DNA from: Candidatus Heimdallarchaeota archaeon
GTDB lineage: Archaea; Asgardarchaeota; Heimdallarchaeia; Heimdallarchaeales; Heimdallarchaeaceae
Reading direction: 5' to 3'
Length of the DNA: 64,000 nucleotides
Assembly: GCA_016839945.1 (NCBI GenBank)
Contig: JAEOTE010000019.1
Location: 326 to 64,325, forward strand
Translations under genes and position numbers: made by a program
Notes under the pieces: generated by a model
The model's input: only the letters and a program-made list of their open reading frames with translations
What the model was told of the DNA's origin: nothing
Database searches by the model: none
Shown: positions 3,707 to 50,279 of the stretch, piece by piece
Position numbering within the stretch: position 1 is the first letter of the stretch
Layout of the letters: the number at the start of each line of letters is the position of its first letter

Positions 3707-4402
3707 TTACTTTTTTTCCAGAAGTTTTTTCAGAGCATTACTGCTAATTATACCCCCATGAGAAAGATGAAGTATTTTAGCACCTTCTTTCAGTATTCGT
3801 TCCCAACTTTTCTTCACTTCATCTAAACTATCAGCAATTATTGGCAATCCGGCTGAGAAATTCATAGGAAATCCCATAGCAATATCTCCTATAAACGCAT
3901 TCCCTTGTTCATCAATTAGGGAGATTGATCCCTTTGTATGCCCTGGTGTGTGAATAATCTTAGCTTTTAATCCAAAATCATAAAGAGAATAATTATCTTC
4001 AACAATAATATCAGCTTCTACTCCATCAAATTGATGGGATTTTTCAGGCATAAAGGAGGATATTTTTTCATAGAATTTTGACGTTGGTTTAACAGGATGA
4101 CTTTTACCCTTCATCAAAAATTCTTTTTCTTCTTGATGAACCAAAACCTTAGCTTTTGTGATCTCCTTAATCGCTTTTAAACTTCCTACATGGTCACCAT
4201 GGACGTGTGTAATAACTATTAGTTTTATATCCTTAGGGTTGATTTTTTTATTCTTCAAGAATCTAATTAGTTTCTTCTCTTTCTTCTTAAGTCCTGCATC
4301 AACTAGAATGTATCCTTTATCACTTTTGATTAAAAAACTACTTGCTACGCCTAATCTTATTTTCATTATTTCATTCATACTTCTCAACGTATTAGCTATC
4401 AA
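3707..4402 (-). CDS. MBL-fold metallo-hydrolase
   Basis: 231 aa with the HxHxDH motif (ITHVHGDHVGS) and a later HTPGHT block. Confidence 0.8.
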   Translation of the reverse strand: MIANTLRSMNEIMKIRLGVASSFLIKSDKGYILVDAGLKKKEKKLIRFLKNKKINPKDIKLIVITHVHGDHVGSLKAIKEITKAKVLVHQEEKEFLMKGKSHPVKPTSKFYEKISSFMPEKSHQFDGVEADIIVEDNYSLYDFGLKAKIIHTPGHTKGSISLIDEQGNAFIGDIAMGFPMNFSAGLPIIADSLDEVKKSWERILKEGAKILHLSHGGIISSNALKKLLEKK

Positions 4403-4958
4403 TGTCTTTTATTACTTTCTTATTCTTAATTATTCCCCACCCACAAAATTCCATTCTTTTCCACCTGTCAAAATATTCCTCTTTTCTTAAATTGAGAATA
4501 TATCCAAAATATAAGGATAATATTATACCATGACTTACAACAAGGATTTTCCTGTTCGAATGCTGATTATCTATTAAATCTGTAGCTTTCATTATTCGAT
4601 TTAATGCACTTTTTGCTGTTTCCCATTCTTTAATCTCTGAACAACCTTCCACAAGAATCAATCTAACCTGTTTCTCATACTCACCCTTACCTTCAATATA
4701 ACCCCCTTCCCTTCCCAATTCATTAAAATCTGAGTATGTATCTATCTTTTTTCCTAATCTTTCGGCAACAAAAGCTGCAGTTTGAATTGCTTTCTTTTCT
4801 TTTGAGGAAATTATTATATCTATATCATCAAAAATACCTGAACTAGCTATTTTAGACATCTTTTCCTTTCCACTCTTCGCTATTTCCCATTTAACCACTG
4901 GAGAATCTTGATCAATAATAGTTAATGCATGTCTAAGGAAGAAAAAGGAGTTATTCAT
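4392..4958 (-). CDS. histidine phosphatase family protein (phosphoglycerate-mutase-like), copy 2
   Basis: 188 aa with FFLRHA (RHG-type catalytic motif) and VVSHGIIL. Paralog of 5014..5580. Overlaps the MBL gene by 11 nt. Confidence 0.7.
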   Translation of the reverse strand: MNNSFFFLRHALTIIDQDSPVVKWEIAKSGKEKMSKIASSGIFDDIDIIISSKEKKAIQTAAFVAERLGKKIDTYSDFNELGREGGYIEGKGEYEKQVRLILVEGCSEIKEWETAKSALNRIMKATDLIDNQHSNRKILVVSHGIILSLYFGYILNLRKEEYFDRWKRMEFCGWGIIKNKKVIKDIDS

Positions 4959-5013: not shown

Positions 5014-5580
5014 TTACAAAAATATATCTCTCAAAACCTCATTATCCTTAACTCTACCCCAAGCACAACTTTTCAGAGCTTTCCATCTTGGGAAAAGGTT
5101 GCCTTGATTTTCTTTTAGTAGATTATTGAAGTAAAGAGTTAACACTATACCATGGCTTACTATGAGTATTATATTATGTTTGTATTCTTGTTCAATTCTT
5201 TCCAAAGCTAGTTGAAATCTTCTAGAAGCTTGAATTGCAGGTTCCCAACCTGAAACACTCTCCGAATAATTTTCGAAAACTTTCTTTACCTGTTTTTCAT
5301 ATTCTTCAGGATCATCAATTAGATTGGTTCCTTTATCTATCTCGTTTAATCCAGGATTTGTAATTATTTCTTTATCAAGTCTATCAGCGAGAAAATAAGC
5401 AGTTTGAATAGACTTCTTTTGTGTAGAAGTTATGATTATTTCTACATTATCAAAAATTCCTGTAGCTGCTACTTCTTCTATGAATTTAAGACCATCTTCT
5501 GACATTACCCATTTTTCAGAAGGAGCTTCTGTATCTTTTCTTACTTTTGTATGACGAAGGAAAATATATGTATTATGCAT
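5014..5580 (-). CDS. histidine phosphatase family protein (phosphoglycerate-mutase-like), copy 1
   Basis: 188 aa with IFLRHT and IVSHGIVL. Collinear with its neighbour of identical length. Confidence 0.7.
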   Translation of the reverse strand: MHNTYIFLRHTKVRKDTEAPSEKWVMSEDGLKFIEEVAATGIFDNVEIIITSTQKKSIQTAYFLADRLDKEIITNPGLNEIDKGTNLIDDPEEYEKQVKKVFENYSESVSGWEPAIQASRRFQLALERIEQEYKHNIILIVSHGIVLTLYFNNLLKENQGNLFPRWKALKSCAWGRVKDNEVLRDIFL

Positions 5581-5661: not shown

Positions 5662-7323
5662 TTAGAGAGAGCTTTCATATAATTGAACAAGTCTATCTCT
5701 TACGATTTCGCTTCTGTACTCTGGGAGTAACATAGGACCATATCTCTTCTCTTTTAGCTTTAATGCATCCATTGTTTCAACTGTTTTTTTAACATGGTCT
5801 AGAGTCAGTTTTCCTACTTTAGCTTTCTTAATTTCTTTTGCAGCTTGGATACCTGCTCTTCTTCCAAAAACATTGACTTCAAGAAGAGAATTGCCCATCA
5901 ATCTGTTTTTTCCATGTACTCCTCCAGAAACTTCTCCTGCAATTAACAAACCAGGAACAGAGCTGTGACACCATTCATCATGTAGAACTCCACCATTTTG
6001 GTAATGAAGTGTTGGATATACAAGTACAGGATCTACTGTCATATCAATTCCGAACCTTTGCAGCATTCGATCCATAGCTGCAAGATTTTTATCTATAGTA
6101 CCCTTTCCTCTGATTTCTTCAATTAGAGGAGAGTCTAACCATACTCCTCTCATACCTGTTGGTGTCTCAATGTAATTATCAGTACTGCTACAACAACGAA
6201 TAATAGCAGAAGCTTCAACGTCTCTTGGTTCAAGAGGGTAGCATACTTGTTCACCATTTCTACCAATAACTTGAGCTCCTAATCCTCTTACTTTCTCGGT
6301 GATTAGGAGACCAACAATTTGTTCTGGATAAGCTGCTCCAGTTGGATGAAATTGTGTAGATTCTAAATTGCGAAGTTTAGCTCCTGTTCTATAAGCCAGT
6401 AACACACCATCCATTGTCGCACCATAATGATTGGTTGTTGGAAAACCAGCAACATGTAGTCTTCCAAATCCACCTGTAGCCATGATTGTTGTCTTAGCTC
6501 GTACAACAAAATATTGTTTTGTTTCTAGATGGTATAGAATTGCCCCTGTTACTCTTCCGGTTTCATCTGTTAATAGTTCTATTGCTGGTGTGAATTCTAA
6601 GGTTGGAATTTCTAGATTTCTGTATTCATCTCTGATTACTCTGAAAATTTCAAGTCCTGTATAATCTTTTGCACTATGCATTCTGAAACGAGAAGTACCT
6701 CCTCCAGAAAGAACCATGAAATTTCCCTCCTCAGTTAAGTCATACATAACACCTAAATCTTTATGCCATTTTATAATTTCAGGACCATCGTTTACAAGAG
6801 CTTTTGCTAGTTCAGGAATATTATCAAAATGACCTCCACCAATAGCATCTAAATAATGAATTAGAGGAGAATCTTCTGGTCTATCAGCAGCTTGAATCCC
6901 TCCTTGTGCCATAACGGTGTTAGCATCCCCGTGTCTTAGCTTTGAGCTAACTAAGATGTCATCGACTGGAATTCCAGAATAATGTGCCCAAATTGCAGCT
7001 GCTGTTCCTGCACCTCCAGCTCCAATGATTAAAACTCCAACATCATAATCTATTTTTGAGAGATCAATATCATCAGGATTAATAAGAGGGTAAGATTCAA
7101 GAACATCTGCAACTTCTACAGGAACGATATCTCCCTTATTTTGCCCGTAAGCAAGTGCCCTTTTTACATCTACCTTATAATCAGGATGATAATTTTTTAG
7201 AACTTCATCTCGTTCTTTCATTGTCATATGAGCACATACTTCATCTAATCTCTTACTTCGTGTTTTGTTAACATTGTCTATTGATTTTCTCATTTCTTCT
7301 GTGTATCCACCTGTTAGTTTCAT
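5662..7323 (-). CDS. FAD-dependent succinate dehydrogenase/fumarate reductase-family flavoprotein (SdhA/FrdA/TfrA/NadB-like)
   Basis: 553 aa. Motifs: GAGGAGTAAA dinucleotide fold, TVMAQGGIQAA, STQFHPTG, ITEKVRGLGA, GLLIAGEVSGGVHGKNRLMGNSLLEVNVFGRRAG. There is no His at the covalent-FAD position (ANT instead of SHT). About 90 aa of extra N-terminus precede the FAD fold. Confidence 0.8.
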   Translation of the reverse strand: MKLTGGYTEEMRKSIDNVNKTRSKRLDEVCAHMTMKERDEVLKNYHPDYKVDVKRALAYGQNKGDIVPVEVADVLESYPLINPDDIDLSKIDYDVGVLIIGAGGAGTAAAIWAHYSGIPVDDILVSSKLRHGDANTVMAQGGIQAADRPEDSPLIHYLDAIGGGHFDNIPELAKALVNDGPEIIKWHKDLGVMYDLTEEGNFMVLSGGGTSRFRMHSAKDYTGLEIFRVIRDEYRNLEIPTLEFTPAIELLTDETGRVTGAILYHLETKQYFVVRAKTTIMATGGFGRLHVAGFPTTNHYGATMDGVLLAYRTGAKLRNLESTQFHPTGAAYPEQIVGLLITEKVRGLGAQVIGRNGEQVCYPLEPRDVEASAIIRCCSSTDNYIETPTGMRGVWLDSPLIEEIRGKGTIDKNLAAMDRMLQRFGIDMTVDPVLVYPTLHYQNGGVLHDEWCHSSVPGLLIAGEVSGGVHGKNRLMGNSLLEVNVFGRRAGIQAAKEIKKAKVGKLTLDHVKKTVETMDALKLKEKRYGPMLLPEYRSEIVRDRLVQLYESSL

Positions 7324-7336
7324 TTTTGCACCTCTA

Positions 7337-8050
7337 TTACTCCTTATCTCTATTCTTATATCTCTCTTCTAGTTTTTCTTTAGAGAGAGCCATTAGCTCT
7401 TTGAATCCGTCTTCGTACTTACCATCTATGATTTCTTTGATTCTTTCATCAAGATAACTTGGAGCTATCATTAGATATTTGCCATAAAGTCGTCGTGCTA
7501 ATTCTGCTACATGGTATTGTGGGATTTCCGCAGGACAACGAATTGCACAAAGACCACAAGAAACACAATCGAAGCTTTCCTCCGCTGCTTTATCAATTTG
7601 ACCTTGTAGACTAAATTGAATATAATCCATCACCTGTATGTCCTGAGGACAAACTTTGCTGCATGCATTACAACTTAAACACCTTGCCACTTCAGGATAA
7701 AATCGAAGGATGGTATTTGCAGAAGGTGTAAGATTATTAATATCATAAGTTGGTTTGTCTGCTGGAACAAAAGGAAGTTGAGTTAAAACCATCCCATCTT
7801 CCACCATAGTTTGACAAGCTAGAGCTGTATAAATTCGAAAATCTCCTTCTTTTCTATAAACAGTTGAGCAAGCACCGCAGAAACCTGCCCTACAACCTGA
7901 ACCTCTGGTAAATTTGTAACCTGCATATTCCATTGCTTTCATTATGGTTAAAGTTGCGGGAACTTCATAAGCACTTCCCATTATGTAAATCTTAACATTT
8001 CCAGTAGTTTCTTTTTTTGTGTTTTTTGATTCTGTTTTTGCCTTAGACAT
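7337..8050 (-). CDS. SdhB/FrdB-like iron-sulfur subunit ([2Fe-2S] plus two Cys-cluster motifs)
   Basis: 237 aa. CRAGFCGAC..(n)..C is a plant-type 2Fe-2S pattern as in SdhB. It is followed by CLSCNACSKVCP and CVSCGLCAIRCP. Confidence 0.75.
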   Translation of the reverse strand: MSKAKTESKNTKKETTGNVKIYIMGSAYEVPATLTIMKAMEYAGYKFTRGSGCRAGFCGACSTVYRKEGDFRIYTALACQTMVEDGMVLTQLPFVPADKPTYDINNLTPSANTILRFYPEVARCLSCNACSKVCPQDIQVMDYIQFSLQGQIDKAAEESFDCVSCGLCAIRCPAEIPQYHVAELARRLYGKYLMIAPSYLDERIKEIIDGKYEDGFKELMALSKEKLEERYKNRDKE

Positions 8051-8060
8051 TTTATAACCT

Positions 8061-8972
8061 CTACTTGAATTTCAATTCTTTCAATAAAATTCGAGGATCA
8101 ATTTTGTGATCTTCAAAGTGATTTATTTCCACAGGCTCACCCATTGCTAATGCCATTAATTGACTAAAATAAAAAATTGGAATAGCTTCTTTTTTACCTG
8201 TTTTTTCCATTAACATCTTTTGTTGTTGATCTAGGTTGTAAGCGCATAAGGGACATGCTACTGCTAAAGCATTAGCTCCACGAATCATTGCTGAATCTAT
8301 AATTTTCTGAACTTGCCTTGTAACAATATCCTCATCACTAACAATGTGATAAGATCCACAACAATATTTGAACAATGGAGAAAATACAACTTCAGCACCT
8401 AGACTTTCTATTAAGTTTTCTAATACTGAAGGCATTTCTTCGTCATCTATCTTTGCTTCTTCTGGGTGTAGTAACATGCACCCATAGTAGGGGGTGACTT
8501 TAAAACCTTTCAATGGTTTGACTACCTTATTTGCAATCTTAGCGAAACCGATATTATCTCTTAATATCTCAAGAAAATGTTTCACTTCCATATCACTAGA
8601 ATAGGTCTCTTCATCATCTTCTAGTTGAAAATTAATTACTTCTAGTTTCTCAGGATCTACCAATACTTCACTATTTACTATTTTTAGTGTACTATTACAC
8701 ATTGAGCACAACGTCACTATATCCTGAGACGAATTTTCTAGCTCTTCAACGTGTTTTCTTGATCTAGCAAGTACTCTCACAGGAGCTATTCTTTTCATTA
8801 AGTTATCAGCTGTCATTGTGTGAACTGTGCCACAACAATTCCAATTAGGGATCTCTACGAGTTCAGCTTCCAGTTTCTTACTCACAGCTATTGCTGATTT
8901 CTCGAACCCTTTAGCATTTGTTTTTAGATTGCAACCTGGAAAGTACGAATAGTTAACCATTTCTTTTTTCAC
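8061..8972 (-). CDS. hdrB: heterodisulfide reductase subunit B-like protein (two CCG domains)
   Basis: 303 aa. YFPGCNLKT...NWNCCGT and YYGCMLL...KYCCGSY are two CCG motifs, plus ACPLCAYNLD. Confidence 0.85.
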   Translation of the reverse strand: MKKEMVNYSYFPGCNLKTNAKGFEKSAIAVSKKLEAELVEIPNWNCCGTVHTMTADNLMKRIAPVRVLARSRKHVEELENSSQDIVTLCSMCNSTLKIVNSEVLVDPEKLEVINFQLEDDEETYSSDMEVKHFLEILRDNIGFAKIANKVVKPLKGFKVTPYYGCMLLHPEEAKIDDEEMPSVLENLIESLGAEVVFSPLFKYCCGSYHIVSDEDIVTRQVQKIIDSAMIRGANALAVACPLCAYNLDQQQKMLMEKTGKKEAIPIFYFSQLMALAMGEPVEINHFEDHKIDPRILLKELKFK

Positions 8973-9379
8973 CCTGTCATTTTCCTGAAGCTCCCAACTA
9001 ATGCAATGTTGGGGAGTTTTTCCAGAACATCTTTAGGAATATCTGCGATTTTGACTTTTTCTGGTTCCTCTCTCAATATATACTCACGCACAGCTTCCAT
9101 TAATGCTGCAACATCGATTTCACGAGGACACCTTATAGTGCAAGTTAAACAACTAGCACAGATCCAATGAGTATTGGCTTGTAATACTTTTTCTTTTTGA
9201 CCCATTTGTATATGGTTGATCAGCTGATTGACAGTTAAATCCATTTTACTACTGAATGGACAGCCTGCGCTGCATTTTCCACACTGATAGCAAGAATATA
9301 TGTTCTGTCCGGAAATTTCCTCAATCTTCTTAATGAATTCTTTTTCTTCCTGTCCGAATTTAATATACTCATACGACAT
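8969..9379 (-). CDS. hdrC: heterodisulfide reductase subunit C-like 4Fe-4S dicluster protein
   Basis: 136 aa with CYQCGKCSAGCP and CASCLTCTIRCP. Overlaps hdrB by 4 nt. Confidence 0.8.
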   Translation of the reverse strand: MSYEYIKFGQEEKEFIKKIEEISGQNIYSCYQCGKCSAGCPFSSKMDLTVNQLINHIQMGQKEKVLQANTHWICASCLTCTIRCPREIDVAALMEAVREYILREEPEKVKIADIPKDVLEKLPNIALVGSFRKMTG

Positions 9380-9863
9380 TTGTTTCTATTTCCTCCTTTA
9401 TTTCTTGGAGTATATATTTGTAAACTTCATCTACAATTTCATCAAATTTGGTTTGAATTTCTGGAGTAAGCTCATCGCTGAACTCCAATACATTGAAAAT
9501 TTCGATTCCAAGGATTGCAATATCCTTTGGAATATCATCATACATTTGATTACAGAATTCTAAAGCAGTAAAGAAGTCCATATTATGATAATCAGAAATA
9601 TGTAAAGCGCTAGCAAAATCATCCGGTTGAAGGTGAACAACTGTTCCCTTTGGATATTTGCCAGTTTGTATAGAATCAACTAAGATGATTTTTTCATATC
9701 CTCTAAAAATTTCTACAAGACCTATTCCTGCTAAAGAAACATCTTCTATTATTTCTACAAATTCTGGTAAGGAGTAAGTATCTCTAATATACTCTACTAC
9801 TTTGATGCCTATTGCATCATCACCAACTATAGGATTACCCAAACCAATTAATCCAATTTTCAT
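9369..9863 (-). CDS. [NiFe]-hydrogenase maturation endopeptidase (HycI/FrhD family)
   Basis: 164 aa. The N-terminus MKIGLIGLGNPIVGDDAIGIKV is the family signature. MvhA carries a cleavable tail after DPCLACATH. Confidence 0.8.
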   Translation of the reverse strand: MKIGLIGLGNPIVGDDAIGIKVVEYIRDTYSLPEFVEIIEDVSLAGIGLVEIFRGYEKIILVDSIQTGKYPKGTVVHLQPDDFASALHISDYHNMDFFTALEFCNQMYDDIPKDIAILGIEIFNVLEFSDELTPEIQTKFDEIVDEVYKYILQEIKEEIETNVV

Positions 9864-9884: not shown

Positions 9885-11852
9885 TTATCCTTCACTAAGT
9901 GCTTGAATCAGATTTAAGATCTGACTATCTGTATATCCCAGATGATTAATAGCTCCATTTAAACATGCAGCTGCACAAGATCCACATCCTTTGCATACTG
10001 CTTCATTCACACTAGCAATTTCATATGAATGTCCATATCTATCTATTGCTTTCAATTCAATAGCTCCATAAGGACAAGATTCAACACAAAAACCACAACC
10101 TCTACATAAAAGCTCATCTACTTGTGCAATTGTTGCTTCAACTTCAAGTTCTTTTTGAGCTAATATGTTACATGCTTTTACTGCAGCTCTTCCAGCTTGA
10201 GATACAGTGTCTGGTATATCTCTTGGACCAGAAGCTGTTCCTGCAACAAAAACACCTGTAATAGCAGTTTCAACAGGCTTTAATTTTGGATGAGCCTCTC
10301 TAACAAAACCTATAATATCAGTTGAAAGTTTGAGTATCTTGGAAATTTCTTTTGTCCCCTCACTAGGTACCATACCTGTAGCTAATACCACTAAGTCGGC
10401 ATGTAATTCAACAGATTCAGCAGTTAAAGTATTTACTCCTCTAACTAGAATTTTATCAACATCTTGAATAAGTTCTGAGACCTTTCCTCTGATGAACATT
10501 ACATTCTCTTCTTCAGCAGCTCTTTGATAAAATTCTTCATAGTCCTTCCCCCCAGTTCTAATGTCGATGTAAAAATTAATCGCAAGAGCATCAGGATCCA
10601 GCTGTTTGAACATTAAAGCATGCTTAGTTGAATACATACAGCATATCCTTGAACAGTGAGGAAGATGTTTTGCTGGATCACGAGAGCCTGCACAATGAAT
10701 GAAAACTATTGTTTTAGGTACTTTTCCATCTGAAGGACGTCTGATGACTCCTTCTGTTGGTCCACCAGCTGAAATTAATCTTTCAAATTCTAATCCTGAG
10801 ACGACATCATGAATTGACCCATAACCATATTCACCAAGGTTTTCGATTGGATAAGTATCAAAACCTGTTGCAACTACGATAGCACCAAATTCCTCTTCCA
10901 TTATTTCCGGTTGCATATCAAAATCGATTGCTTCTGGTTCACAAACATCTTTGCATTTGGAACAAACGAGAGGTTCAATGCCTAAACAAGTTTTTGGATC
11001 TATTATATAAGATGCTGGTATAGCTTGAGGATATGAGATATAAATTGCTCTTCGTGGAGCAAGTTTTTCATTAAACTCATGATGAACAATCACAGGGCAA
11101 ACTGGTACACAATCATCACATAGTGTACATTTATCTTCAATAACATATCTAGGATTTCTCCTAATTTTAACTTTAAAATTCCCTATAAAACCATCTACTT
11201 CTGTAACTTCACTATTAGCTAGCAATGTAATATTAGGGTGACGACTAACTTCTACCATTTTAGGACTTAATATACAAGCTGAACAATCTAAAGTTGGAAA
11301 AGTTTTATCTAGTTGAGCCATTTTTCCACCAATTGTAGAATCTTTCTCAACTAGTACTACTTCATAACCTGTATTAGCAATGTCCAAAGCAGCTTGAATA
11401 CCTGCAATACCTCCTCCAATCACTAAAGCTTTGGAAGTTACACCTACTTTCTTCCTCCCCAGTGGTTTTATAGCAGCTGATTTTAGAACTGCTCCTTTCA
11501 CAAGTGCAGCAGCTTTTTCAGTTCCTTTTTCTACATCTTTGTGTACCCAAGAACATTGTTCTCGGATATTGACCATTTCTAAAAGGTAAGGATTTAATCC
11601 TTTATCTTCAAGCACTGTTCTAAAAGTGGGTTCATGCATTCGAGGTGAACATGCAGCTACAACAATCCTATCGAGATTAAACTCGTCTATATCCTCTTTG
11701 ATGAGTTCTTGTCCAGGTTCAGAGCATTTGTATTTGTAAATACGACTAACCTCAACATTGGGTAAATCTTTTACACTTTCTGCTACTTTCTCTAAGTCGA
11801 CTGTACCTGCAATATTACTCCCACATTCACAGAGATAAACACCAACTTTCAT
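9885..11852 (-). CDS. hdrA: heterodisulfide reductase subunit A (FAD and multi-[4Fe-4S] bifurcating flavoprotein), copy 2
   Basis: 655 aa. Motifs: VIGGGIAGIQAALDIA..VVLVEK, FPTLDCSACIL, CTLCDDCVPVCP, CRGCGFCVESCP, CKGCGSCAAAC. Confidence 0.9.
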   Translation of the reverse strand: MKVGVYLCECGSNIAGTVDLEKVAESVKDLPNVEVSRIYKYKCSEPGQELIKEDIDEFNLDRIVVAACSPRMHEPTFRTVLEDKGLNPYLLEMVNIREQCSWVHKDVEKGTEKAAALVKGAVLKSAAIKPLGRKKVGVTSKALVIGGGIAGIQAALDIANTGYEVVLVEKDSTIGGKMAQLDKTFPTLDCSACILSPKMVEVSRHPNITLLANSEVTEVDGFIGNFKVKIRRNPRYVIEDKCTLCDDCVPVCPVIVHHEFNEKLAPRRAIYISYPQAIPASYIIDPKTCLGIEPLVCSKCKDVCEPEAIDFDMQPEIMEEEFGAIVVATGFDTYPIENLGEYGYGSIHDVVSGLEFERLISAGGPTEGVIRRPSDGKVPKTIVFIHCAGSRDPAKHLPHCSRICCMYSTKHALMFKQLDPDALAINFYIDIRTGGKDYEEFYQRAAEEENVMFIRGKVSELIQDVDKILVRGVNTLTAESVELHADLVVLATGMVPSEGTKEISKILKLSTDIIGFVREAHPKLKPVETAITGVFVAGTASGPRDIPDTVSQAGRAAVKACNILAQKELEVEATIAQVDELLCRGCGFCVESCPYGAIELKAIDRYGHSYEIASVNEAVCKGCGSCAAACLNGAINHLGYTDSQILNLIQALSEG

Positions 11853-11968
11853 TTTTGCTCAACCTCATTGTAAAATATTCTAGATTTTAAGTTGTTAGTA
11901 TGAAAAATCAGACCTTTATTAGAGTACACTTCTTCCCAATTTAAAGCCTTTAATTCATTATTTTCCAT
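11849..11968 (-). CDS. candidate 39-aa small ORF between mvhA and hdrA
   Basis: Hand translation: MENNELKALNWEEVYSNKGLIFHTNNLKSRIFYNEVEQK*. GGTGG lies 5-9 nt upstream. The ATG starts 10 nt after the mvhA stop, and its TGA overlaps the hdrA ATG (ATGA). Below the size cut-off of the ORF track. Confidence 0.3.
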   Translation of the reverse strand: MENNELKALNWEEVYSNKGLIFHTNNLKSRIFYNEVEQK

Positions 11969-11977
11969 TTCAACCAC

Positions 11978-13453
11978 CTAAAACTTTCTTTTTAATATTC
12001 TTATTAATTTCTTATTCTGATCATAAATTTCTACTTGCAAAGGCATTTGGCCTGGTAATGAGTGAGTAGCACATGCTAAACAGGGGTCATAGGCCCTAAA
12101 AGCCATCTCTATTTTGTTTAATCCATCATCATTGTATTGTCCACGTTGTATCATTTCTTGTGCTGCTTGTTTAACACTTAAGCAAATAGCTGCGTTATTA
12201 TTTGTTGTTGCAACAATTATATTCGCATCTGTTACTCTACCCTCTTTATTAGTTTTATAATGGTGATAAAGTGTTCCACGAGGAGCTTCTATAACTCCAA
12301 CTCCTTCTCCTGTTATCATACTTTTAGTTACTGGAGTTCTGTATTTATCTGAAAAGACGTCAGGATTTTCAGCTATTTCTTTCATTCTTTCTCCGCAGTA
12401 GAGGATTTCAACTAATCTAGCCCAGTTAAATCCTAAAGTGTGATGAGATGGTTTTCCACCTAATATTTTGTACATATTTTCCATAGCTTCCTGAGCTAAG
12501 GGAGTTTTTATTTTATCAACAACGTTTAATCTTGCAAGAGAATTAACTCTATACAAACCATTATCTGGTTCAGCTACGAATCCTTTCCAACCTATTTTTT
12601 TCAGATATGGGAATTTCAGATATGACCAAGGTTCAACATGTTCTGATAAATAATCCAGATATTCTTTAGCATGATATTTTGCGACTTCTTTTCCTTTACT
12701 ATTTACTATCTTAACAGTATCATGTTGATAGAAATCTAATTCATTATCTGGTCCTACTACTGACATATAATAGGATTCCATTTTATAAGCATCTGAATCA
12801 ATAAGAGACATTAATTTATCATTTTTTACAACCAAATCATCAAATACTTTAAGACCCAGTTTACCAAATTCTATTGTCTCTATTGACATTTTTAGAATAT
12901 CTTCAGCTTGTTCTTGAGTTATTCCTTTACTTATACCACCTGGAATCACTGTTACTGGATGAGTGGCTTTAGCACCAACCATCGCTTGAATTTTTTGAGC
13001 AAAACCTCTGATTTTTATTGCTTCTTTTGCAACTTCAGGAAAAGCTTGGTAAATTCCTAAAATGTTGTGAGTACCTGGTTTGGTTTTTTCTCCTAACACA
13101 AAATCTGGTAGAGCAAAAGCATAGAAATGCAGTATGTGACTATGGATGTTATGCCCAAGTGCTAAAATCTCTCTTAGGAGCTTTGCTGTTTTTGGTGGGT
13201 CTATACCATATATCTGATCTGCTGCTTTTGCTGGAGCTAAATGATGTGGGATTGGACATACTCCACATATCCTTGGAGTTATTCTTAGAACTTCTTCAAT
13301 AGGTCTACCTTGTACAAATCTTTCAAAACCTCGAAGTTCTACTACTTGAAAATAAGCATCCTTTACGTTTCCTTCATCATTTAATACTACTGTAATTTTA
13401 GCTAAGCCTTCTAGTCTAGTGACAGGATCTATTGTTACAACTTTTCCACTCAT
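11978..13453 (-). CDS. mvhA: [NiFe] hydrogenase large subunit, MvhA-type (group 3c)
   Basis: 491 aa. N-terminal RICGVCPIPH (RxCGxCxxxH) and C-terminal DPCLACATH followed by a 27-aa tail. Confidence 0.9.
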   Translation of the reverse strand: MSGKVVTIDPVTRLEGLAKITVVLNDEGNVKDAYFQVVELRGFERFVQGRPIEEVLRITPRICGVCPIPHHLAPAKAADQIYGIDPPKTAKLLREILALGHNIHSHILHFYAFALPDFVLGEKTKPGTHNILGIYQAFPEVAKEAIKIRGFAQKIQAMVGAKATHPVTVIPGGISKGITQEQAEDILKMSIETIEFGKLGLKVFDDLVVKNDKLMSLIDSDAYKMESYYMSVVGPDNELDFYQHDTVKIVNSKGKEVAKYHAKEYLDYLSEHVEPWSYLKFPYLKKIGWKGFVAEPDNGLYRVNSLARLNVVDKIKTPLAQEAMENMYKILGGKPSHHTLGFNWARLVEILYCGERMKEIAENPDVFSDKYRTPVTKSMITGEGVGVIEAPRGTLYHHYKTNKEGRVTDANIIVATTNNNAAICLSVKQAAQEMIQRGQYNDDGLNKIEMAFRAYDPCLACATHSLPGQMPLQVEIYDQNKKLIRILKRKF

Positions 13454-14451
13454 TTTATCTCCTCCTCTGAATGAAGATTATAGATAAGTGATTTACCATA
13501 TGTAAAACGATAAAATGTTCCTAAGGGGTCAGGAATTTTATCTACTACTTTGTGCAATTCTTCTTCTGACATATCTTCTTCTACATCAACGTCTAGTAAT
13601 GATGTTAAAGCTGAAATCATCTTTAAACCATGATCTTTTACTTTGTCAGTTGGACCTAAACAACCTCTGCATCCAACATTCATCTTTGTGCATAAAGCAT
13701 CACAACCTGCTCGAGTTGCAGGTCCCATACAAATAATACCTTGAGGAATTAAACACAAATCAGGATCAATTTCTTGAACCTCTTGAGGAGAAATGAAATC
13801 TTTGAATGAGATTTCTTCTGGTTTTGTTCTTCCACACTCTTCACATAGTGTTTTTGTATCAGCAATAACTGTACCTTTAGGAGGTAATTGACCAGTTGAG
13901 GCAAAAACTTTCAAAACCTCAACAACTTGTTCAATTAATGGAACCATAGGGGGGCATCCTGGAACATAATAATCAATATCAATAACAGCATCTAATGCAT
14001 CAGCATCTTTTCTGATTCCAGGTAATGTTAGTTCTGTACCTTTAATTGTGATAGATGTTTGGGGGACAGTGCCTTCAGGATTGTCCATTGAAGGTACATC
14101 TTTATACACAACATCAAACATACTTTTCTCATAAGGCATATTAGCTAAGCTTGGTATTCCTCCAAAGTTCGCACAAGCACCAAAAGCTACTACAACTTTA
14201 GATTTCTTTCTAAGTATTTTAGCTATTTCAGCATCTTCTGTAGTCCTGATGGAACCATGGTAAATCCCAACATCTACTTCTCCATCCTTAAGATTCTTTA
14301 AATCATCAATTTTGAAATCCATAGCTGTAGGCCAGAATTTGAAATCAACTAAATCAAAGACTTCTAGTATTTTTTCATTTAAATCTAAGATAGCTACATC
14401 GCATCCGGCACATGTAGCTCCTAATGCAATCGCTAGGTTTATTTTCTTCAT
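13450..14451 (-). CDS. mvhG: [NiFe] hydrogenase small subunit, MvhG-type (no Tat signal)
   Basis: 333 aa. LGATCAGCDVAILD at the N-terminus, GACANFGGIP, further Cys clusters. Overlaps both neighbours by 4 nt. Confidence 0.85.
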   Translation of the reverse strand: MKKINLAIALGATCAGCDVAILDLNEKILEVFDLVDFKFWPTAMDFKIDDLKNLKDGEVDVGIYHGSIRTTEDAEIAKILRKKSKVVVAFGACANFGGIPSLANMPYEKSMFDVVYKDVPSMDNPEGTVPQTSITIKGTELTLPGIRKDADALDAVIDIDYYVPGCPPMVPLIEQVVEVLKVFASTGQLPPKGTVIADTKTLCEECGRTKPEEISFKDFISPQEVQEIDPDLCLIPQGIICMGPATRAGCDALCTKMNVGCRGCLGPTDKVKDHGLKMISALTSLLDVDVEEDMSEEELHKVVDKIPDPLGTFYRFTYGKSLIYNLHSEEEIK

Positions 14452-14903
14452 AATTCCTCCCCTCCTTTACCATTAATTTTGTATGGAGGAAGCTTTTTTA
14501 GCTCATCAACCATAGCAGTAACTGTTTTAGCAAATTTCGCAGCTTCAGTTGCAGAAATCCAGGTTAATCTAAATCTTTTTGGACTTACACCAACCTGCTT
14601 TAATAATTTTGATAATATTGACATTCTTCGAAATGTCTTATAATTCCCTGTTTTATAATGACAATCTCCAAAATTACAACCAGTTATAAGAACCCCGTCT
14701 GCTCCTTCTAAAAATGCCTCTACTACATGTTGTGGATCAATTCTACTTGAACAATTCACCATTATTGGAAGAACATTTGGAGGATATTGTAGTCTTGATG
14801 TCCCTGCTAGATCAGCTCCTTTTCCTGAGCACCACCTGCATAAGAAAAGAATTATGTTAGGATTTGGATTTTGGGACTCTGTTTCTTGCGTTGTTTTACT
14901 CAT
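14448..14903 (-). CDS. mvhD: MvhD, methyl-viologen-reducing hydrogenase delta subunit ([2Fe-2S] adaptor to HdrA)
   Basis: 151 aa with FLCRWCSGKGADLAG...ITGCNFGDCHY, the MvhD/FlpD signature. Confidence 0.85.
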   Translation of the reverse strand: MSKTTQETESQNPNPNIILFLCRWCSGKGADLAGTSRLQYPPNVLPIMVNCSSRIDPQHVVEAFLEGADGVLITGCNFGDCHYKTGNYKTFRRMSILSKLLKQVGVSPKRFRLTWISATEAAKFAKTVTAMVDELKKLPPYKINGKGGEEL

Positions 14904-14905
14904 TT

Positions 14906-16861
14906 CTACCCACTCCTTAGTAGTGCTTTAATGCTCGCACTAATACTTTCATATGTAGAATTTCTCAGTTCAATGCTTCCTGATGGACATGCAGAAGCAC
15001 AGCTCCCACACCCTTCACATAGAGCTTCTCTTACAACTATTTTATTCAGAGGTTCATCATAATAGATTGCTCCATAAGGACACACATGAATACAAGTATG
15101 ACAAACTCCACATGTATTTTCATCAATTTCTGCAATAACTGGATCTCTGTCCATAAAATCAGAGGATAAAATGGTTTCAGCTTTTGCAGCTGCTCCAGAT
15201 GCTTGTGCTACAGTTTCGGGAATATCCTTTGGACCAGATGCAGTACCTGCAACAAATACTCCAGCTATTGCTGTTTCAACTGGTTTTAGTTTTGGATGAG
15301 CTTCTTTCACAAATCCTTTATTATCACAAGAGAGTTTGAGTATGTTTGAAATTTCTTTTGTACCCTCACTAGGTAACAATCCTGTTGCTAAAACAACTAA
15401 ATCAGTGTGTAACTCGACAGCTTCAGAAGTAAGAGTATTCACTCCTCTGACTAGAATTCGTTCACCATCTTGCAGAAGTTCTGATACTTTCCCTCTAATA
15501 TATATTACACCTTCCTCTTCTGCAGCTCTCTTGTAAAATTCTTCATAATCTTTACCTGCAGTTCTAACATCGATGTAGAAGTTTATAGCTGTTCCATCAT
15601 GAACAAGATGTTTGTATTGCAAAGCATGCTTTGTTGCATACATGCAACAAATCTTTGAACAATATTCTAGATGCTTAGCAGGATCACGGGAACCTGCACA
15701 ATGAATAAAAACAACTGATTCTGGAATTTTCCCATCTGAGGGGCGTCTTATAACTCCTTGAGTAGGTCCATTTGCTGCTAAGATTCTTTCGAATTCCAAA
15801 CCTGAAATTACGTCATGAATAGTTCCGTATCCATACTCACCTATACTTTCTATTGGATAGGGTGTATAACCTGTTGCTACAATTATGGCACCAAATTCCT
15901 CTTCAATTATTTCCGGTTGCATGTCAAAATCGATTGCACGTGGTTCACACACTTCTTTACATTTAGCACAAATTAAGGGATCAATACCTAAACAAGTGTT
16001 AGGATCAATGATATAGTTAGCTGGAACAGCTTGTGGAAAAGCAATATAAATTGCTTTACGAGGAGTTAATCCTACATTATATTCATCGTGAACTATAACT
16101 GGACAAACTGATACACAATCATCACAAAGTGTGCATTTTTCTTCGATTACATAACGTGGTTTTTTGTTTATCCTTACTTTGAAGCTCCCAACATATCCAT
16201 CTATATTTTCTACTTCACTGTTTGTTAAAAGACTAATATTTGGATGTCTACCAACTGCAACCATTTTTGGAGTTAAGATACATTGAGAACAATCTAAAGT
16301 TGGGAAAGTTTCAGCAAGTTGAGCCATCTTTCCGCCAATCGTTGAATCTTTTTCTACAAGTACCACTTCATAACCAGCATCTGCAATATCTAAAGCAGCT
16401 TGGATTCCAGCTACCCCTCCACCAATCACCAAAGCTTTTTGTGTTACTGGAATTTGATAAGGAACTAACGGTTGATTTCTTTTTACTTTTTCAATAGTTG
16501 ATTCAATAATTCTAATCGTTTTTTCTGTAGCTTTATCCTTTTCCTCATGAACCCAGCTACATTGCTCTCTTATATTTGCCATTTCTGTCAAATACTGATT
16601 CAAACCTGCTTCTTTGGTTGCAATTCTGAAGGTATCTTCATGCATATCTTTGCTACAAGCTGCAACTACAACTCTATCCAGATTGTGTTTATTAATAGCA
16701 TCTTTCAAAACAGTTTGCCCTGGCTCTGAGCACATATACATATTACTTTCAATATGAATTACTTCATCAACATCTTTTATTTTTTCAACAACTTTTTCTA
16801 TATCTACTGTGTGGGCAATATTTCTCCCACAATGGCAAACAAAGACCCCTACTCTGCTCAT
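14906..16861 (-). CDS. hdrA: heterodisulfide reductase subunit A, copy 1
   Basis: 651 aa, collinear with copy 2 over its whole length, for example FPTLDCSQCILTPKMV..CTLCDDCVSVCP..IHCAGSRDPAKHL. Confidence 0.9.
   Translation of the reverse strand: MSRVGVFVCHCGRNIAHTVDIEKVVEKIKDVDEVIHIESNMYMCSEPGQTVLKDAINKHNLDRVVVAACSKDMHEDTFRIATKEAGLNQYLTEMANIREQCSWVHEEKDKATEKTIRIIESTIEKVKRNQPLVPYQIPVTQKALVIGGGVAGIQAALDIADAGYEVVLVEKDSTIGGKMAQLAETFPTLDCSQCILTPKMVAVGRHPNISLLTNSEVENIDGYVGSFKVRINKKPRYVIEEKCTLCDDCVSVCPVIVHDEYNVGLTPRKAIYIAFPQAVPANYIIDPNTCLGIDPLICAKCKEVCEPRAIDFDMQPEIIEEEFGAIIVATGYTPYPIESIGEYGYGTIHDVISGLEFERILAANGPTQGVIRRPSDGKIPESVVFIHCAGSRDPAKHLEYCSKICCMYATKHALQYKHLVHDGTAINFYIDVRTAGKDYEEFYKRAAEEEGVIYIRGKVSELLQDGERILVRGVNTLTSEAVELHTDLVVLATGLLPSEGTKEISNILKLSCDNKGFVKEAHPKLKPVETAIAGVFVAGTASGPKDIPETVAQASGAAAKAETILSSDFMDRDPVIAEIDENTCGVCHTCIHVCPYGAIYYDEPLNKIVVREALCEGCGSCASACPSGSIELRNSTYESISASIKALLRSG
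14906..16861 (-). repeat. dispersed ~2 kb gene duplication; partner copy is 9885..11852
   Basis: Long blocks of near-identical DNA, for example ttccggttgcatgtcaaaatcgattgc (about 15.91 kb) versus ttccggttgcatatcaaaatcgattgc (about 10.91 kb). By eye the proteins are roughly 70% identical. Confidence 0.8.
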
Positions 16862-16864
16862 TTT

Positions 16865-17413
16865 TTATCCTTCTTGACTGTGCTCTTTTCCTTTTTGGAA
16901 TGCAATAAGATTTTTTTCAACAAACCTTGCTTTTATTTTCTTTTTCATTACTTCAATTAGAGATTCCTCAGAAACAATGTCTTTAGTATTAGCACAAACA
17001 AACCCTAACATCACTATATTTGCAAAAATTCTATTCCCAAGAGTTTCAGCAATTTTAGTAGCAGGTATTTTGTATATTTTCTTAGCTTTGTCCGCATGCT
17101 CATCTAGTGATACTAGATTTTCTTCAACAAACAATATTCCCCCCTTCTTAAGTTTTGGAATGTATTTATCATACGCTTCTTCAGACATAACGACAAAATA
17201 ATCTAATTCTGTAGCTTTAGGATAATCGATATCAGCTGTATCAATAACAACATCAGAGCTACTAGCACCACCTCTGCTTTCAGGGCCATAGCTTTGTGTC
17301 ATAACAGAGTTTTTGTTTTTTTCGTATAAAGAAACAGCTTCCCCAACTAGTCTCCCCATAAGACCAATACCTTGACCACCAAAACCTGCAAATCGTACTT
17401 CAATTCTACTCAT
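16865..17413 (-). CDS. 2-oxoacid:ferredoxin oxidoreductase gamma subunit
   Basis: 182 aa with FAGFGGQGIGLMG and the SYGPESRGG motif. Confidence 0.85.
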   Translation of the reverse strand: MSRIEVRFAGFGGQGIGLMGRLVGEAVSLYEKNKNSVMTQSYGPESRGGASSSDVVIDTADIDYPKATELDYFVVMSEEAYDKYIPKLKKGGILFVEENLVSLDEHADKAKKIYKIPATKIAETLGNRIFANIVMLGFVCANTKDIVSEESLIEVMKKKIKARFVEKNLIAFQKGKEHSQEG

Positions 17414-18285
17414 TTCTTACCCCCCTTATTTAAAGCAGCTTCACCTTTTCTTTGAATTTCTAACAAATGGTCTGTTAAAGTTGGTTTATCTTCAATATCA
17501 ACAAATTTACCTACAATCATTGGACCATCTTTTTCTATATCTACTTTCTTTGTATCCATTCCATGCTGAAGAACTGCTTTCTCTTTGAAGTATTCTAGAA
17601 TCTTTTTTCCTTCAGCTAACTGGTTACGACGCCCATAAGTTGTAGGGCAACTACCTAGAACCTCTACAAATGAGAAACCCTTCTTTGTTATGGCTTCAAC
17701 AAAAGAATCTTTAACTCTTCTGACATCTAGAGCTGTCCATCGAGCAACATATACAGCTCCACAAGAAGCTGCTAAATCTGGTAAATTAAATGGTTCTTCA
17801 ACTGTTCCATAAGGTGTAGTAGATTGAAATTGTCCTACATAAGAAGTCGGACCAACTTGCCCTCCAGTCATTCCGTAATTGAAATTGTTAACACAGATAA
17901 CTGTAATGTCAGCATTTCTTCTAGCTGCGTGGATGAAGTGGTTACCACCTATAGCAAACAAATCTCCATCACCAGATACAACAATAACTTTACGATCAGG
18001 ATCAGTTACACTTAAACCAATCGCAAAAGGTATTGCTCTACCATGAGTAGTGTGAAAACTATCAAAATTAAGATATCCCGCAATTCTCCCAGTACATCCT
18101 ATACCTGATACAACAGCTACTTTTTTTGGATCAACTCCAGCTTCAAGTATGGCTTCTACAAGTACGGTGGTTATTGATCCTAAGCTACAGCCGGGACAGA
18201 AAATGTGTGGGATTCTACCCTCTCTTAGATAACCATCAAGTGGATGATCATGTGATTCAATTAATTCTATATTTTCTTCAGCCAT
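17410..18285 (-). CDS. 2-oxoacid:ferredoxin oxidoreductase beta subunit (TPP-binding)
   Basis: 291 aa. FCPGCSLG, GIGCTGR and SGDGDLFAIGGNH (the TPP GDG motif). Confidence 0.85.
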   Translation of the reverse strand: MAEENIELIESHDHPLDGYLREGRIPHIFCPGCSLGSITTVLVEAILEAGVDPKKVAVVSGIGCTGRIAGYLNFDSFHTTHGRAIPFAIGLSVTDPDRKVIVVSGDGDLFAIGGNHFIHAARRNADITVICVNNFNYGMTGGQVGPTSYVGQFQSTTPYGTVEEPFNLPDLAASCGAVYVARWTALDVRRVKDSFVEAITKKGFSFVEVLGSCPTTYGRRNQLAEGKKILEYFKEKAVLQHGMDTKKVDIEKDGPMIVGKFVDIEDKPTLTDHLLEIQRKGEAALNKGGKK

Positions 18286-47802: not shown

Positions 47803-47911
47803 TAGGACATTAAAACGAATTTCTAAATATAAAGTTGATTATTTGATTTTTTTTAATTTATTTTACTTCATAAAGCAAAAATTTTATAGTGTTCCGAACA
47901 AAAATCAAACA

Positions 47912-50278: not shown

Positions 50279-50279
50279 T

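Follow-up and report, generated by a model that had tools for sequence, protein, structure and literature searches.

The cluster and its four terminal genes

The window analysed here is a stretch of 64,000 nucleotides from a Candidatus Heimdallarchaeota archaeon, with a G+C content of 30-38%. At positions 5662-9379, on its minus strand, lie four genes that encode an HdrC-like protein, an HdrB-like protein, an iron-sulfur (FeS) protein and a flavoprotein related to the catalytic subunits of fumarate reductases and succinate dehydrogenases. A first-pass annotation of this DNA had described them as separate and tightly packed open reading frames (ORFs) with the following domains: a 4Fe-4S dicluster, two CCG domains, a [2Fe-2S] site plus two Cys clusters, and a flavoprotein fold. 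This description was confirmed; the spacings between the ORFs are +13, +10 and -4 bp, and Pfam and NCBIfam agree with the inventory. The four genes are the following.

5662-7323, minus strand: flavoprotein, FrdA/SdhA-like, 553 amino acids (aa) (Pfam FAD_binding_2, residue alignment, Foldseek)
7337-8050, minus strand: FeS subunit, SdhB/FrdB-like, 237 aa (Pfam Fer2/Fer2_4 and Fer4 dicluster)
8061-8972, minus strand: HdrB-like protein, 303 aa, both CCG motifs intact (Pfam CCG, twice)
8969-9379, minus strand: HdrC-like 2x[4Fe-4S] protein, 136 aa (TIGR03290, 70 bits; QmoC, 70 bits)

The block had been regarded as a self-contained unit, which does not hold in the window genome. Instead, it is the 3′ end of a cluster of 14 co-oriented minus-strand genes (19766-5662), whose order from 5′ to 3′ is korDABG-like, hdrA, mvhD/G/A, a second hdrA, a protease gene, hdrC, hdrB, the FeS gene and the flavoprotein gene. 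The intergenic gaps range from -11 to +21 bp, except for one of 125 bp that separates the gene of HdrA paralogue 2 from mvhA. The ten genes upstream of the block, together with the succinyl-CoA synthetase genes found elsewhere in the window, are listed below.

9369-9863, minus strand: [NiFe]-hydrogenase maturation endopeptidase (Pfam HycI; TIGR00072, 100 bits, above cut-off)
9885-11852, minus strand: HdrA paralogue 2, 655 aa, a flavin adenine dinucleotide (FAD) and FeS flavoprotein (NCBIfam HdrA2/HdrA, 824/641 bits)
11978-13453, minus strand: MvhA/VhuA-like [NiFe]-hydrogenase large subunit (NF041785 VhuA, 405 bits, top match)
13450-14451, minus strand: MvhG/VhuG-like hydrogenase small subunit (NF045875 VhuG, 171 bits, top match)
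14448-14903, minus strand: MvhD/VhuD-like [2Fe-2S] adaptor (NF045873 VhuD, 117 bits; MvhD-like tail of the HdrA2 model, 167 bits)
14906-16861, minus strand: HdrA paralogue 1, 651 aa (NCBIfam HdrA2/HdrA, 821/656 bits)
16865-17413, minus strand: Kor/Oor-type 2-oxoacid:ferredoxin oxidoreductase, gamma subunit
17410-18285, minus strand: Kor/Oor-type oxidoreductase, beta subunit (top match a 2-oxoglutarate:ferredoxin oxidoreductase model)
18287-19447, minus strand: Kor/Oor-type oxidoreductase, alpha subunit (PRK08659, 565 bits, cut-off 411)
19440-19766, minus strand: Kor/Oor-type oxidoreductase, delta subunit (top match a 2-oxoglutarate:ferredoxin oxidoreductase model)
49412-50305, minus strand: SucD (Pfam CoA_binding/Ligase_CoA)
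50280-51422, minus strand: SucC (tblastn with E. coli SucC, 37% identity; Pfam ATP-grasp_2/Ligase_CoA)

The alpha subunit of the Kor-type enzyme scores 406 bits on a 2-oxoglutarate synthase alpha model and merely 109 on PorA. SucCD, which catalyzes the step between the two redox enzymes, is encoded outside the operon, about 30 kb away. No transmembrane-like segment was found in any of the 14 cluster proteins (maximum KD19 1.83) and, therefore, the cluster lacks an SdhC/D-type anchor, as had been noted before. The flanks, read by eye, show an oligo-T run after the stop codon of the flavoprotein gene and an A/T-rich, TATA-like stretch before the next gene.

The flavoprotein has the fold and the catalytic residues of the SdhA/FrdA superfamily. 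The FAD_binding_2 domain spans residues 97-480 (Pfam, E = 7e-57), and the motifs quoted in the first-pass annotation are all present: QFHPTG at 324-329, TEKVRG with the loop Arg (R346), the C-terminal block HGKNRLMGNSLLE at 470-482, and ANT at the covalent-FAD position; so is the CRAGFCGAC of the FeS subunit. The protein was aligned with E. coli SdhA, FrdA and NadB (L-aspartate oxidase), taken from NC_000913, and with TfrA-like representatives. In this alignment, H326, T342, E343, R346, R367, H440 and R474 occupy invariant columns together with the dicarboxylate-binding and proton-shuttle residues of E. coli SdhA, FrdA and NadB; they supply the His, Thr-Glu, Arg, His and Arg typical of the superfamily and are conserved at 100% across 77 distinct family members. 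The catalytic His, Arg and Thr, whose alignment had been proposed as a check, are thus in register with those of E. coli FrdA and SdhA. At the position of the His that binds FAD covalently in these two enzymes stands N135, in all 77 members, and the FAD of the flavoprotein is predicted to be non-covalent; the absence of the His (ANT rather than SHT) had been correctly read. The column of NadB Glu121, by comparison, is variable (23% conserved in the same 77 proteins), with Ser in the window flavoprotein and His, Pro, Ala or Ser elsewhere.

The two ends of the protein depart from the canonical enzymes. Its chain finishes about 50 residues past the NRLMGNS helix, whereas SdhA, FrdA, NadB and TfrA-like proteins run on for 130-190 residues. 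Accordingly, neither Pfam nor the alignment finds the C-terminal helical domain (Succ_DH_flav_C, with its ESRGAH motif) in the flavoprotein, a feature that had been overlooked. An AF2 model of the protein (pLDDT 81.6, pTM 0.84) is closest, as judged with Foldseek, to E. coli FrdA, M. smegmatis Sdh1 SdhA, human SDHA, flavocytochrome c3 and NadB (1knp, TM 0.61). In this model, the N-terminal extension, for which a structure prediction had been recommended, has confident secondary structure (helices 9-27, 35-45 and 69-75; pLDDT 82-94) and forms a small helical/beta unit. The top NCBIfam match of the flavoprotein is the TfrA model NF004900, at 285 bits versus a cut-off of 718, and the NadB model TIGR00551 gives 249 bits versus 453.

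The FeS subunit contains one [2Fe-2S] site (CRAGFCGAC, residues 53-61) and two full CxxCxxCxxxCP motifs, so that the arrangement expected of SdhB/FrdB, an N-terminal CxxxxCxxC...C [2Fe-2S] site and two further Cys motifs, is found. Its profile (76 sequences) aligns with E. coli SdhB/FrdB over residues 26-177 (hhalign, probability 89.8%, E = 1.8e-6), with all three Cys motifs in register, and its 12 Cys are all conserved at 99-100% among the 76 sequences. The second motif (C162, C165, C168 and C172) is invariant and does not have the three-Cys pattern of a [3Fe-4S] site; a second [4Fe-4S] cluster is predicted because this last motif has a fourth Cys that is absent from [3Fe-4S]-type SdhB. The subunit would then carry one [2Fe-2S] and two [4Fe-4S] clusters. 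The curated SdhB models match it weakly and a phmmer search of the PDB with this protein found no SdhB; it thus appears to be a divergent, shortened SdhB-like protein.

The HdrB-like protein can be aligned over its full length with HdrB structures from methanogens (9sfi_C and 5odc_B) and presents twice the CX31-39CCX35-41CXXC motif of non-cubane [4Fe-4S] clusters, with ligands C14/C46/C47/C89/C92 and C165/C204/C205/C240/C243 conserved at 98-100% in 50 sequences. It scores 151 bits on HdrB (TIGR03288, cut-off 345) and 143 on SdhE of the Campylobacter-type fumarate reductase MFR (NF042965, cut-off 500). The two scores are nearly equal, and the partner of a CCG protein in the type-E and MFR enzymes is an SdhAB-type enzyme. 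The HdrC-like protein, in turn, scores 70 bits on TIGR03290 versus a cut-off of 160 and has its eight Cys conserved at 98-100% in 49 sequences; it covers the first ~100 residues of the HdrC structures and lacks the C-terminal ~50 (methanogen HdrC has ~185 aa). On the three ORFs that hold TfrB-like parts, the TfrB model NF004898 (cut-off 385) gives 37, 27 and 28 bits. As for the two identities proposed in the first-pass annotation, the resemblance to TfrAB and its parts is genuine in the case of a split thiol:fumarate reductase, but the TfrA and TfrB cut-offs are missed and the hdrA, mvh and kor context had been ignored. In the case of a type-E enzyme with SdhE, the resemblance also stands, at 143 bits, while the 500-bit cut-off is not reached.

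In a separate observation, PDB entry 9lay (chains A and B) weakly matches the flavoprotein, the FeS protein and the HdrC-like protein. Its chains are named 'succinate dehydrogenase or fumarate reductase flavoprotein subunit' and '4Fe-4S ferredoxin iron-sulfur binding domain protein', and the entry may be a solved soluble FrdAB-type enzyme.

The flavoprotein family and its gene neighbourhood

The flavoprotein is a member of a family that is very widespread and is not covered by any curated model, and whose marks are the N-terminal extension, the lack of the covalent-FAD His and the lack of the C-terminal domain. The extension of ~90 aa had been called unique; it is, on the contrary, shared by the family, with confirmed relatives in archaea and bacteria, in no fewer than 597 GTDB species genomes. 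Among the best 80 of these matches, 34 are bacterial genomes, and the bacterial carriers include WOR-3, Acetothermia/Bipolaricaulota, Thermotogae, Stahlbacteria, Aminicenantes, Chloroflexaceae, Anaerolineae, Spirochaetota and Fibrobacterota. In a word-indexed search, the best 120 of 8000 matches are all ~550 aa long and 61-91% identical over the full length, residues 1-95 included; their sources are Heimdallarchaeaceae, Loki- and Thorarchaeota, Theionarchaea, Methanofastidiosia and Thermoplasmata. Over residues 1-553, homologues of ~550 aa that are 57-91% identical are found in Asgard archaea, Thermoplasmata, Theionarchaea, Methanofastidiosum, WOR-3, Acetothermia, Thermotogae, Chloroflexota and others. 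When 11 flavoproteins from different phyla are aligned, the mean column identity is 76% and many residues of the extension are invariant.

An exhaustive HMMER search over representatives at 50% identity separates three tiers. The family itself scores 756 bits, while sister subfamilies, which are also N-extended, score 300-440 bits at 40-44% identity. Canonical TfrA-, SdhA- and NadB-like proteins reach at most 230 bits, and their alignment begins only at residue ~95. Neither the flavoprotein nor its N-extended sister subfamilies reach the cut-off of any curated NCBIfam model. TfrA-like representatives (P0186, P0190 and P0173) score 565-646 bits on NF004900 and form a clade separate from the family. 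In a neighbour-joining tree, which includes fragments among its representatives and gives no support to the branching order of the N-extended sister groups, the core family is recovered in 72 of 100 bootstraps. A larger group with a short C-terminus, made up of the family, its N-extended sisters and proteins of ~400 aa, is recovered in 84 of 100 and is separate from the clades of TfrA-like, SdhA/FrdA and NadB proteins. The branching with L-aspartate oxidase that had been named as evidence against the earlier reading was thus not observed.

The ~400-aa FAD_binding_2 proteins (P0149, P0166, P0169, P0179 and others) have neither the N-terminal extension nor the C-terminal domain, and adjoin the family in the tree. 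They are either real minimal enzymes or truncated gene calls.

Three standard assignments were rejected. An identity as NadB is at odds with the variable Glu121 column, the score below threshold, the FeS partner and the position in the tree; a bona fide TfrAB, with the curated cut-offs, the split architecture and the clade; and a canonical complex II, with the lack of an anchor, of the covalent-FAD His and of the C-terminal domain.

The gene neighbourhood was compared in 80 species-level loci from about 20 phyla, searched with the window proteins by tblastn. In all 74 loci with room for it, the FeS gene is the immediate upstream neighbour of the flavoprotein gene, and hdrC-hdrB lie directly upstream of the FeS gene in 45 of 69 (30/39 in archaea and 15/30 in bacteria). 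Within the 39 loci that have at least 8 kb of sequence upstream and 4 kb downstream, co-oriented hdrA and hdrB are nearby in 34 each, kor in 24 and mvhA in 20. The kor genes, within 10 kb of the flavoprotein gene, are placed either upstream of hdrA, as in the window, or immediately downstream of the flavoprotein gene; SucC is found within the same distance in about 10 other loci. In none of the related loci inspected was a membrane anchor gene seen beside the FeS/flavoprotein pair. The pairwise identities of the four proteins correlate across 43 loci (r = 0.74-0.85), the flavoprotein being the most conserved of them, with a minimum of 54% identity across domains.

In loci without mvhGA, the slot between mvhD and hdrA is occupied by two 4Fe-4S proteins, one of them of the Fer4_22 type, and an FAD/NAD-binding protein with a DHODB-type FeS domain (for instance, in L008 of Heimdallarchaeota, L056 of Chloroflexaceae, and L027). 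We take these three genes to be reminiscent of FlxABC in the FlxABCD-HdrABC complex of Desulfovibrio. It would seem, then, that the donor module alone, MvhAG or FlxABC-like, is exchanged around a constant HdrA-HdrCB-FeS-flavoprotein core.

Within the Heimdall lineage, loci L007-L009 have a Flx-type donor instead of Mvh. In the window, mvhDGA sits between two hdrA paralogues that are ~65% identical, as judged from the syntenic locus L005, while the equivalent clusters of the close relatives Heimdallarchaeum aukensis (L010) and L011 contain one hdrA. The arrangement with two suggests that two types of cluster have merged, or that HdrA is heterodimeric.

The FeS/flavoprotein pair also occurs in other settings. 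The four-gene block is found without an adjacent hdrA in Methanofastidiosia (L001), Theionarchaea (L015) and Culexarchaeum (L034), which fits a Tfr-like unit. A sister subfamily, N-extended and 42% identical, forms a triplet of FeS, flavoprotein and NuoF-like genes (L088-L090, 7366-10891) on contigs where DsrE and rhodanese genes are present as well; this triplet is possibly a soluble NADH:fumarate reductase. In addition, P0123 (727 aa, from the representative library) is a natural fusion of an FeS dicluster domain with an N-extended flavoprotein. This fusion and the NuoF-like partner indicate that the pair takes electrons from FeS partners and does not necessarily depend on thiols. Because the pair occurs with a NuoF-like partner, fused, or alone, the constant unit is the pair and not the four-gene block. 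It may be read as a soluble enzyme of the FrdAB type, a fumarate reductase or a succinate dehydrogenase, that plugs into exchangeable electron modules.

In bacterial loci with the pair only (L035, L054 and L057, at about 11300-14500), the neighbouring genes resemble glutamate dehydrogenase and an archaeal-type glutamate synthase domain protein. This resemblance, judged by eye from N-terminal sequences alone, hints at 2-oxoglutarate/glutamate metabolism.

Candidate routes of electron flow

In the window and most of its relatives, hdrC-hdrB directly follow hdrA/mvhD with mvhGA or FlxABC-like genes, and kor is linked. HdrCB thus resembles the usual BC module of a bifurcating HdrABC complex, to which the FeS protein and the flavoprotein may be attached as a terminal reductase, with no free thiol couple required. 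These two proteins would constitute a soluble, anchor-less fumarate reductase of the FrdAB type, with non-covalent FAD, one [2Fe-2S] and two [4Fe-4S] clusters, and would serve as the high-potential outlet of a physical MvhAGD-HdrA-HdrC-HdrB complex. H2 would be oxidized at MvhA and the electron pair passed through MvhG and MvhD to the flavin of HdrA, presumably that of paralogue 2 (9885-11852), where bifurcation would take place. One electron branch would run through HdrC and the clusters of HdrB directly to the FeS subunit, the FAD and finally fumarate (+30 mV), yielding succinate, while in the other HdrA would reduce ferredoxin. The Kor-type enzyme could then use the reduced ferredoxin to carboxylate succinyl-CoA, formed by SucCD, to 2-oxoglutarate. 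The net result would be an H2-driven reductive route from fumarate to 2-oxoglutarate, or a fumarate electron sink that also yields reduced ferredoxin, and no thiol couple of the coenzyme M/coenzyme B (CoM/CoB) type would be needed. Given the textbook potentials of fumarate (+30 mV), H2 (-414 mV), NADH (-320 mV) and ferredoxin (about -500 mV), the transfer of electrons from H2 or NADH to fumarate releases enough energy for the reduction of ferredoxin, and the forward direction is strongly favourable. Taken as a whole, this reductive, directly wired scheme is judged to have an even chance of being right. A broader version is put forward more tentatively, as a plausible but rather doubtful extension: the N-extended pair may be a general, thiol-independent acceptor module of high potential for HdrABC-type complexes outside methanogens, within a single supercomplex that would reduce fumarate and ferredoxin together and whose non-cubane HdrB clusters would relay electrons instead of forming a disulfide site. 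Its hosts would be Asgard archaea, Thermoplasmatota, Acetothermia, WOR-3, Chloroflexota and others, and its donor H2 (Mvh) or NAD(P)H (Flx). The supercomplex might also pass electrons directly to the Kor enzyme.

The idea of such a system is not new. In tubeworm symbionts and Thioflavicoccus mobilis, a conserved cluster for the reductive tricarboxylic acid (rTCA) cycle contains, in this order, frdB, frdA, hdrC, hdrB, korDABC, hdrA and flxDCBA (Rubin-Blum 2019, PMC6315080), and direct bifurcation to OGOR and fumarate reductase was proposed for the symbionts from their genomes (PMC6315080). The cluster was later supported by co-expression (Mitchell 2024, PMC11636981) and the proposal was repeated in a 2026 survey (PMC13147460). 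The same set of genes (frdB-frdA, hdrC-hdrB, hdrA, an mvhD/flxD-like gene and korDABC/G) is fully present and co-oriented in the window. Both clusters share the set of modules, an MvhD-like flxD and the logic of bifurcation, which in the symbionts is a genomic and transcriptomic hypothesis; this likeness concerns gene lists. They differ in that the window has a MvhAG [NiFe]-hydrogenase with its protease as donor, and not FlxABC (NADH), as well as an Asgard host, two hdrA paralogues and no linked ATP-citrate lyase. The window cluster is, as far as gene content tells, an archaeal and hydrogenase-linked variant of the hypothesised bifurcating system. No paper was found on the Mvh-linked archaeal form or on the breadth of the flavoprotein family. 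Papers on metagenome-assembled genomes of Asgard and other archaea label genes of this kind 'thiol:fumarate reductase' or 'cytoplasmic fumarate reductase' and leave open the existence of a CoM/CoB cycle (PMC9723677, PMC8163825, PMC9635834). In Culexarchaeia, SdhA adjoins HdrBC-linked group 4 hydrogenases (PMC9723716).

The characterized enzymes that are closest to the proposed complex each share part of it. The methanogen MvhAGD-HdrABC complex (PDB 5odc, 8rvu and 9sfi) has in common with the window the presence of HdrA, MvhD/G/A and the protease, an HdrB-like protein that keeps all CCG Cys over its full length, and an HdrC-like protein that keeps both clusters. Nevertheless, none of the window subunits reaches its methanogen equivalog cut-off, hdrB is followed by the genes of two further subunits (FeS protein and flavoprotein), and the proposed acceptor is fumarate rather than CoM-S-S-CoB. 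The thiol:fumarate reductase TfrAB of Methanothermobacter, reportedly described by Heim and co-workers in 1998, a study cited in PMC8163825, offers another parallel. Like the window proteins, it is soluble and anchor-less, and comprises a flavoprotein with [2Fe-2S], two [4Fe-4S] and CCG modules. TfrB is, however, one chain, while its parts are distributed in the window over three ORFs, with an additional HdrC. Furthermore, the window flavoprotein differs from TfrA in its N-terminal extension, its missing C-terminal domain and its position outside the TfrA-like clade, and CoM/CoB are presumably absent from its host. In type-E SdhABEF and in the Campylobacter MFR SdhABE, a CCG protein also partners an SdhAB-type enzyme. 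The type-E SdhB is reported, in work by Lemos and Gomes, to carry a second [4Fe-4S] cluster in place of the [3Fe-4S]. In contrast to the window system, these enzymes are associated with the membrane and linked to quinone; HdrC, HdrA and a hydrogenase are absent from them, and their flavoprotein is full-length. Finally, Hydrogenobacter thermophilus reportedly has a soluble, five-subunit, NADH-dependent fumarate reductase of the FrdAB type in its rTCA cycle, described by Miura and co-workers in 2008 (a study cited in PMC13147460), whose genes are said to be scattered. Its extra electron-input subunits reportedly include HdrB/HdrC-like and GltD-like proteins; if they do, the enzyme would be the single biochemical precedent for a thiol-free transfer of electrons from HdrBC-like proteins to FrdAB.

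Several observations weigh against the reductive, directly wired scheme. The case for complex formation comes from synteny, and no biochemical characterization of any family member was found in the literature. The HdrB clusters end the electron chain in the solved HdrABC structures, and no structural precedent is known for an onward route to an FeS subunit. Fully conserved CCG motifs would fit retained disulfide chemistry equally well. Moreover, the conserved residues that point to the substrate are shared with L-aspartate oxidase. The 125-bp gap before hdrA2 may divide the cluster into two transcripts. Lastly, about one-third of the loci, mostly bacterial, have the FeS/flavoprotein pair without Hdr genes within 10 kb; the link to Hdr is, therefore, frequent but not obligatory.

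Some of these observations favour particular alternatives. The same complex could run in reverse, with succinate oxidation and Kor-reduced ferredoxin confurcated at HdrA and H2 made at Mvh. In a syntrophic Asgard archaeon that ferments amino acids, this could take glutamate through 2-oxoglutarate and succinate to fumarate with neither quinone nor membrane. Synteny is equally compatible with this direction, SdhA/FrdA-type enzymes are reversible and their direction is not readable from sequence (PMC13147460), and Asgard archaea have been described as H2-evolving degraders of amino acids with Mvh-Hdr in confurcation mode (PMC9723677). The energetics are what makes the reversal unlikely: the potentials of succinate/fumarate (+30 mV) and ferredoxin (about -500 mV) have a mean near -235 mV. 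The formation of H2 would require H2 near or below 1 Pa together with a very high succinate/fumarate ratio, and the NADH-linked (Flx) variants would be even less favourable. The tubeworm-symbiont homologues, besides, belong to an autotrophic rTCA context. If the block were, instead, a split thiol:fumarate reductase, a thiol pair would be oxidized at the CCG sites of HdrB, the electrons would reach fumarate through HdrC and the FeS subunit, and Mvh-Hdr would re-reduce the disulfide. TfrB is in effect an SdhB-like protein with CCG domains, TfrA is the best NCBIfam match of the flavoprotein, full conservation is seen in both CCG motifs, the annotation thiol:fumarate reductase is given to these genes in several metagenome papers, and Methanofastidiosia, Theionarchaea and Culexarchaeum have the four genes without adjacent hdrA. 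This chemistry is possible especially in lineages that have the four genes alone and make CoM/CoB. Yet the cluster encodes one HdrB, which would be needed both as the thiol oxidase of Tfr and as the disulfide reductase of Hdr; a single HdrB would then oxidize and reduce one and the same thiol couple, and the thiol intermediate would therefore be superfluous. The curated cut-offs are also widely missed (285/718 and 37/385), the flavoprotein lies outside the TfrA-like clade, and the FeS/flavoprotein pair occurs with NuoF-like partners or alone. We know of no thiol cofactor for most of the host lineages, and a split thiol:fumarate reductase is distinctly unlikely in the window.

It is also conceivable that the cluster holds separate enzymes under common regulation, in which Mvh-HdrABC reduces some disulfide and the pair is an independent fumarate reductase or succinate dehydrogenase of a tricarboxylic acid branch, dependent on ferredoxin or another carrier. 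The loci without nearby hdr genes, the linkage to Kor and SucCD, which indicates a pathway regulon, and the gap before hdrA2 would agree with this. However, HdrC-HdrB stand immediately beside the FeS gene in 45 of 69 loci, with short or overlapping junctions, the donor is swapped around a constant core and the divergence of the four proteins is correlated, all of which leaves independent enzymes quite improbable. Alternatively, the flavoprotein may act on another dicarboxylate, such as L-aspartate, as NadB does, or a substituted succinate. It shares with NadB the fold, the dicarboxylate-binding residues and a non-covalent FAD; the NadB models nearly equal TfrA (249 versus 285 bits), the reduced C-terminus recalls NadB and the short archaeal NadBs, and the family-specific invariant residues and N-terminal extension are unexplained. 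On the other hand, it has no conserved equivalent of Glu121, forms a clade separate from that of NadB and ends differently; NadB works without an FeS partner, and the linkage to Kor and SucCD points to succinate. A substrate of this kind is considered very improbable.

The direct reduction of fumarate, if it does occur, matters beyond this cluster. A great many anaerobes that are not methanogens, the Asgard relatives of eukaryotes among them, are reported to possess Mvh-Hdr and Flx-Hdr gene sets, and papers either default to CoM-S-S-CoB as the high-potential substrate or leave it open. An anchor-less fumarate-reductase-like pair attached to hdrC-hdrB, together with Kor and SucCD, makes fumarate a concrete and testable candidate. 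The evidence on the cluster, which is comparative genomics throughout, suggests that fumarate, and not a disulfide of the methanogen type, may be what these complexes reduce outside methanogens. Flavin-based electron bifurcation would then have a new type of acceptor, and metabolic reconstructions would change with regard to hydrogen use, the supply of ferredoxin, the reductive tricarboxylic acid branch and fumarate as an electron sink. Should the general module exist as well, it would represent a new class of bifurcating enzymes, a soluble form of fumarate 'respiration' and a role for Mvh-Hdr in organisms without CoM/CoB.

Other genes of the window

The flavoprotein gene is immediately followed, on its own strand, by two tandem paralogous histidine-phosphatase (His_Phos_1) genes (4392-4958 and 5014-5580), which appear to have A/T-rich promoter-like stretches of their own. 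Upstream, the cluster is bounded by a divergent gene for a small Arf/Ras/Roc-like GTPase (19987-20637). This GTPase and a RING-finger-domain protein of 512 aa (47843-49381) are eukaryote-like signature proteins, which fits the Asgard origin of the window. Two very large ORFs, of 1393 and 1908 aa, are found at 36079-40260 and 55121-60847, respectively. A protein of the luciferase-like monooxygenase family (Pfam Bac_luciferase) is encoded at 966-1799, and its N-terminus resembles F420-dependent oxidoreductases.

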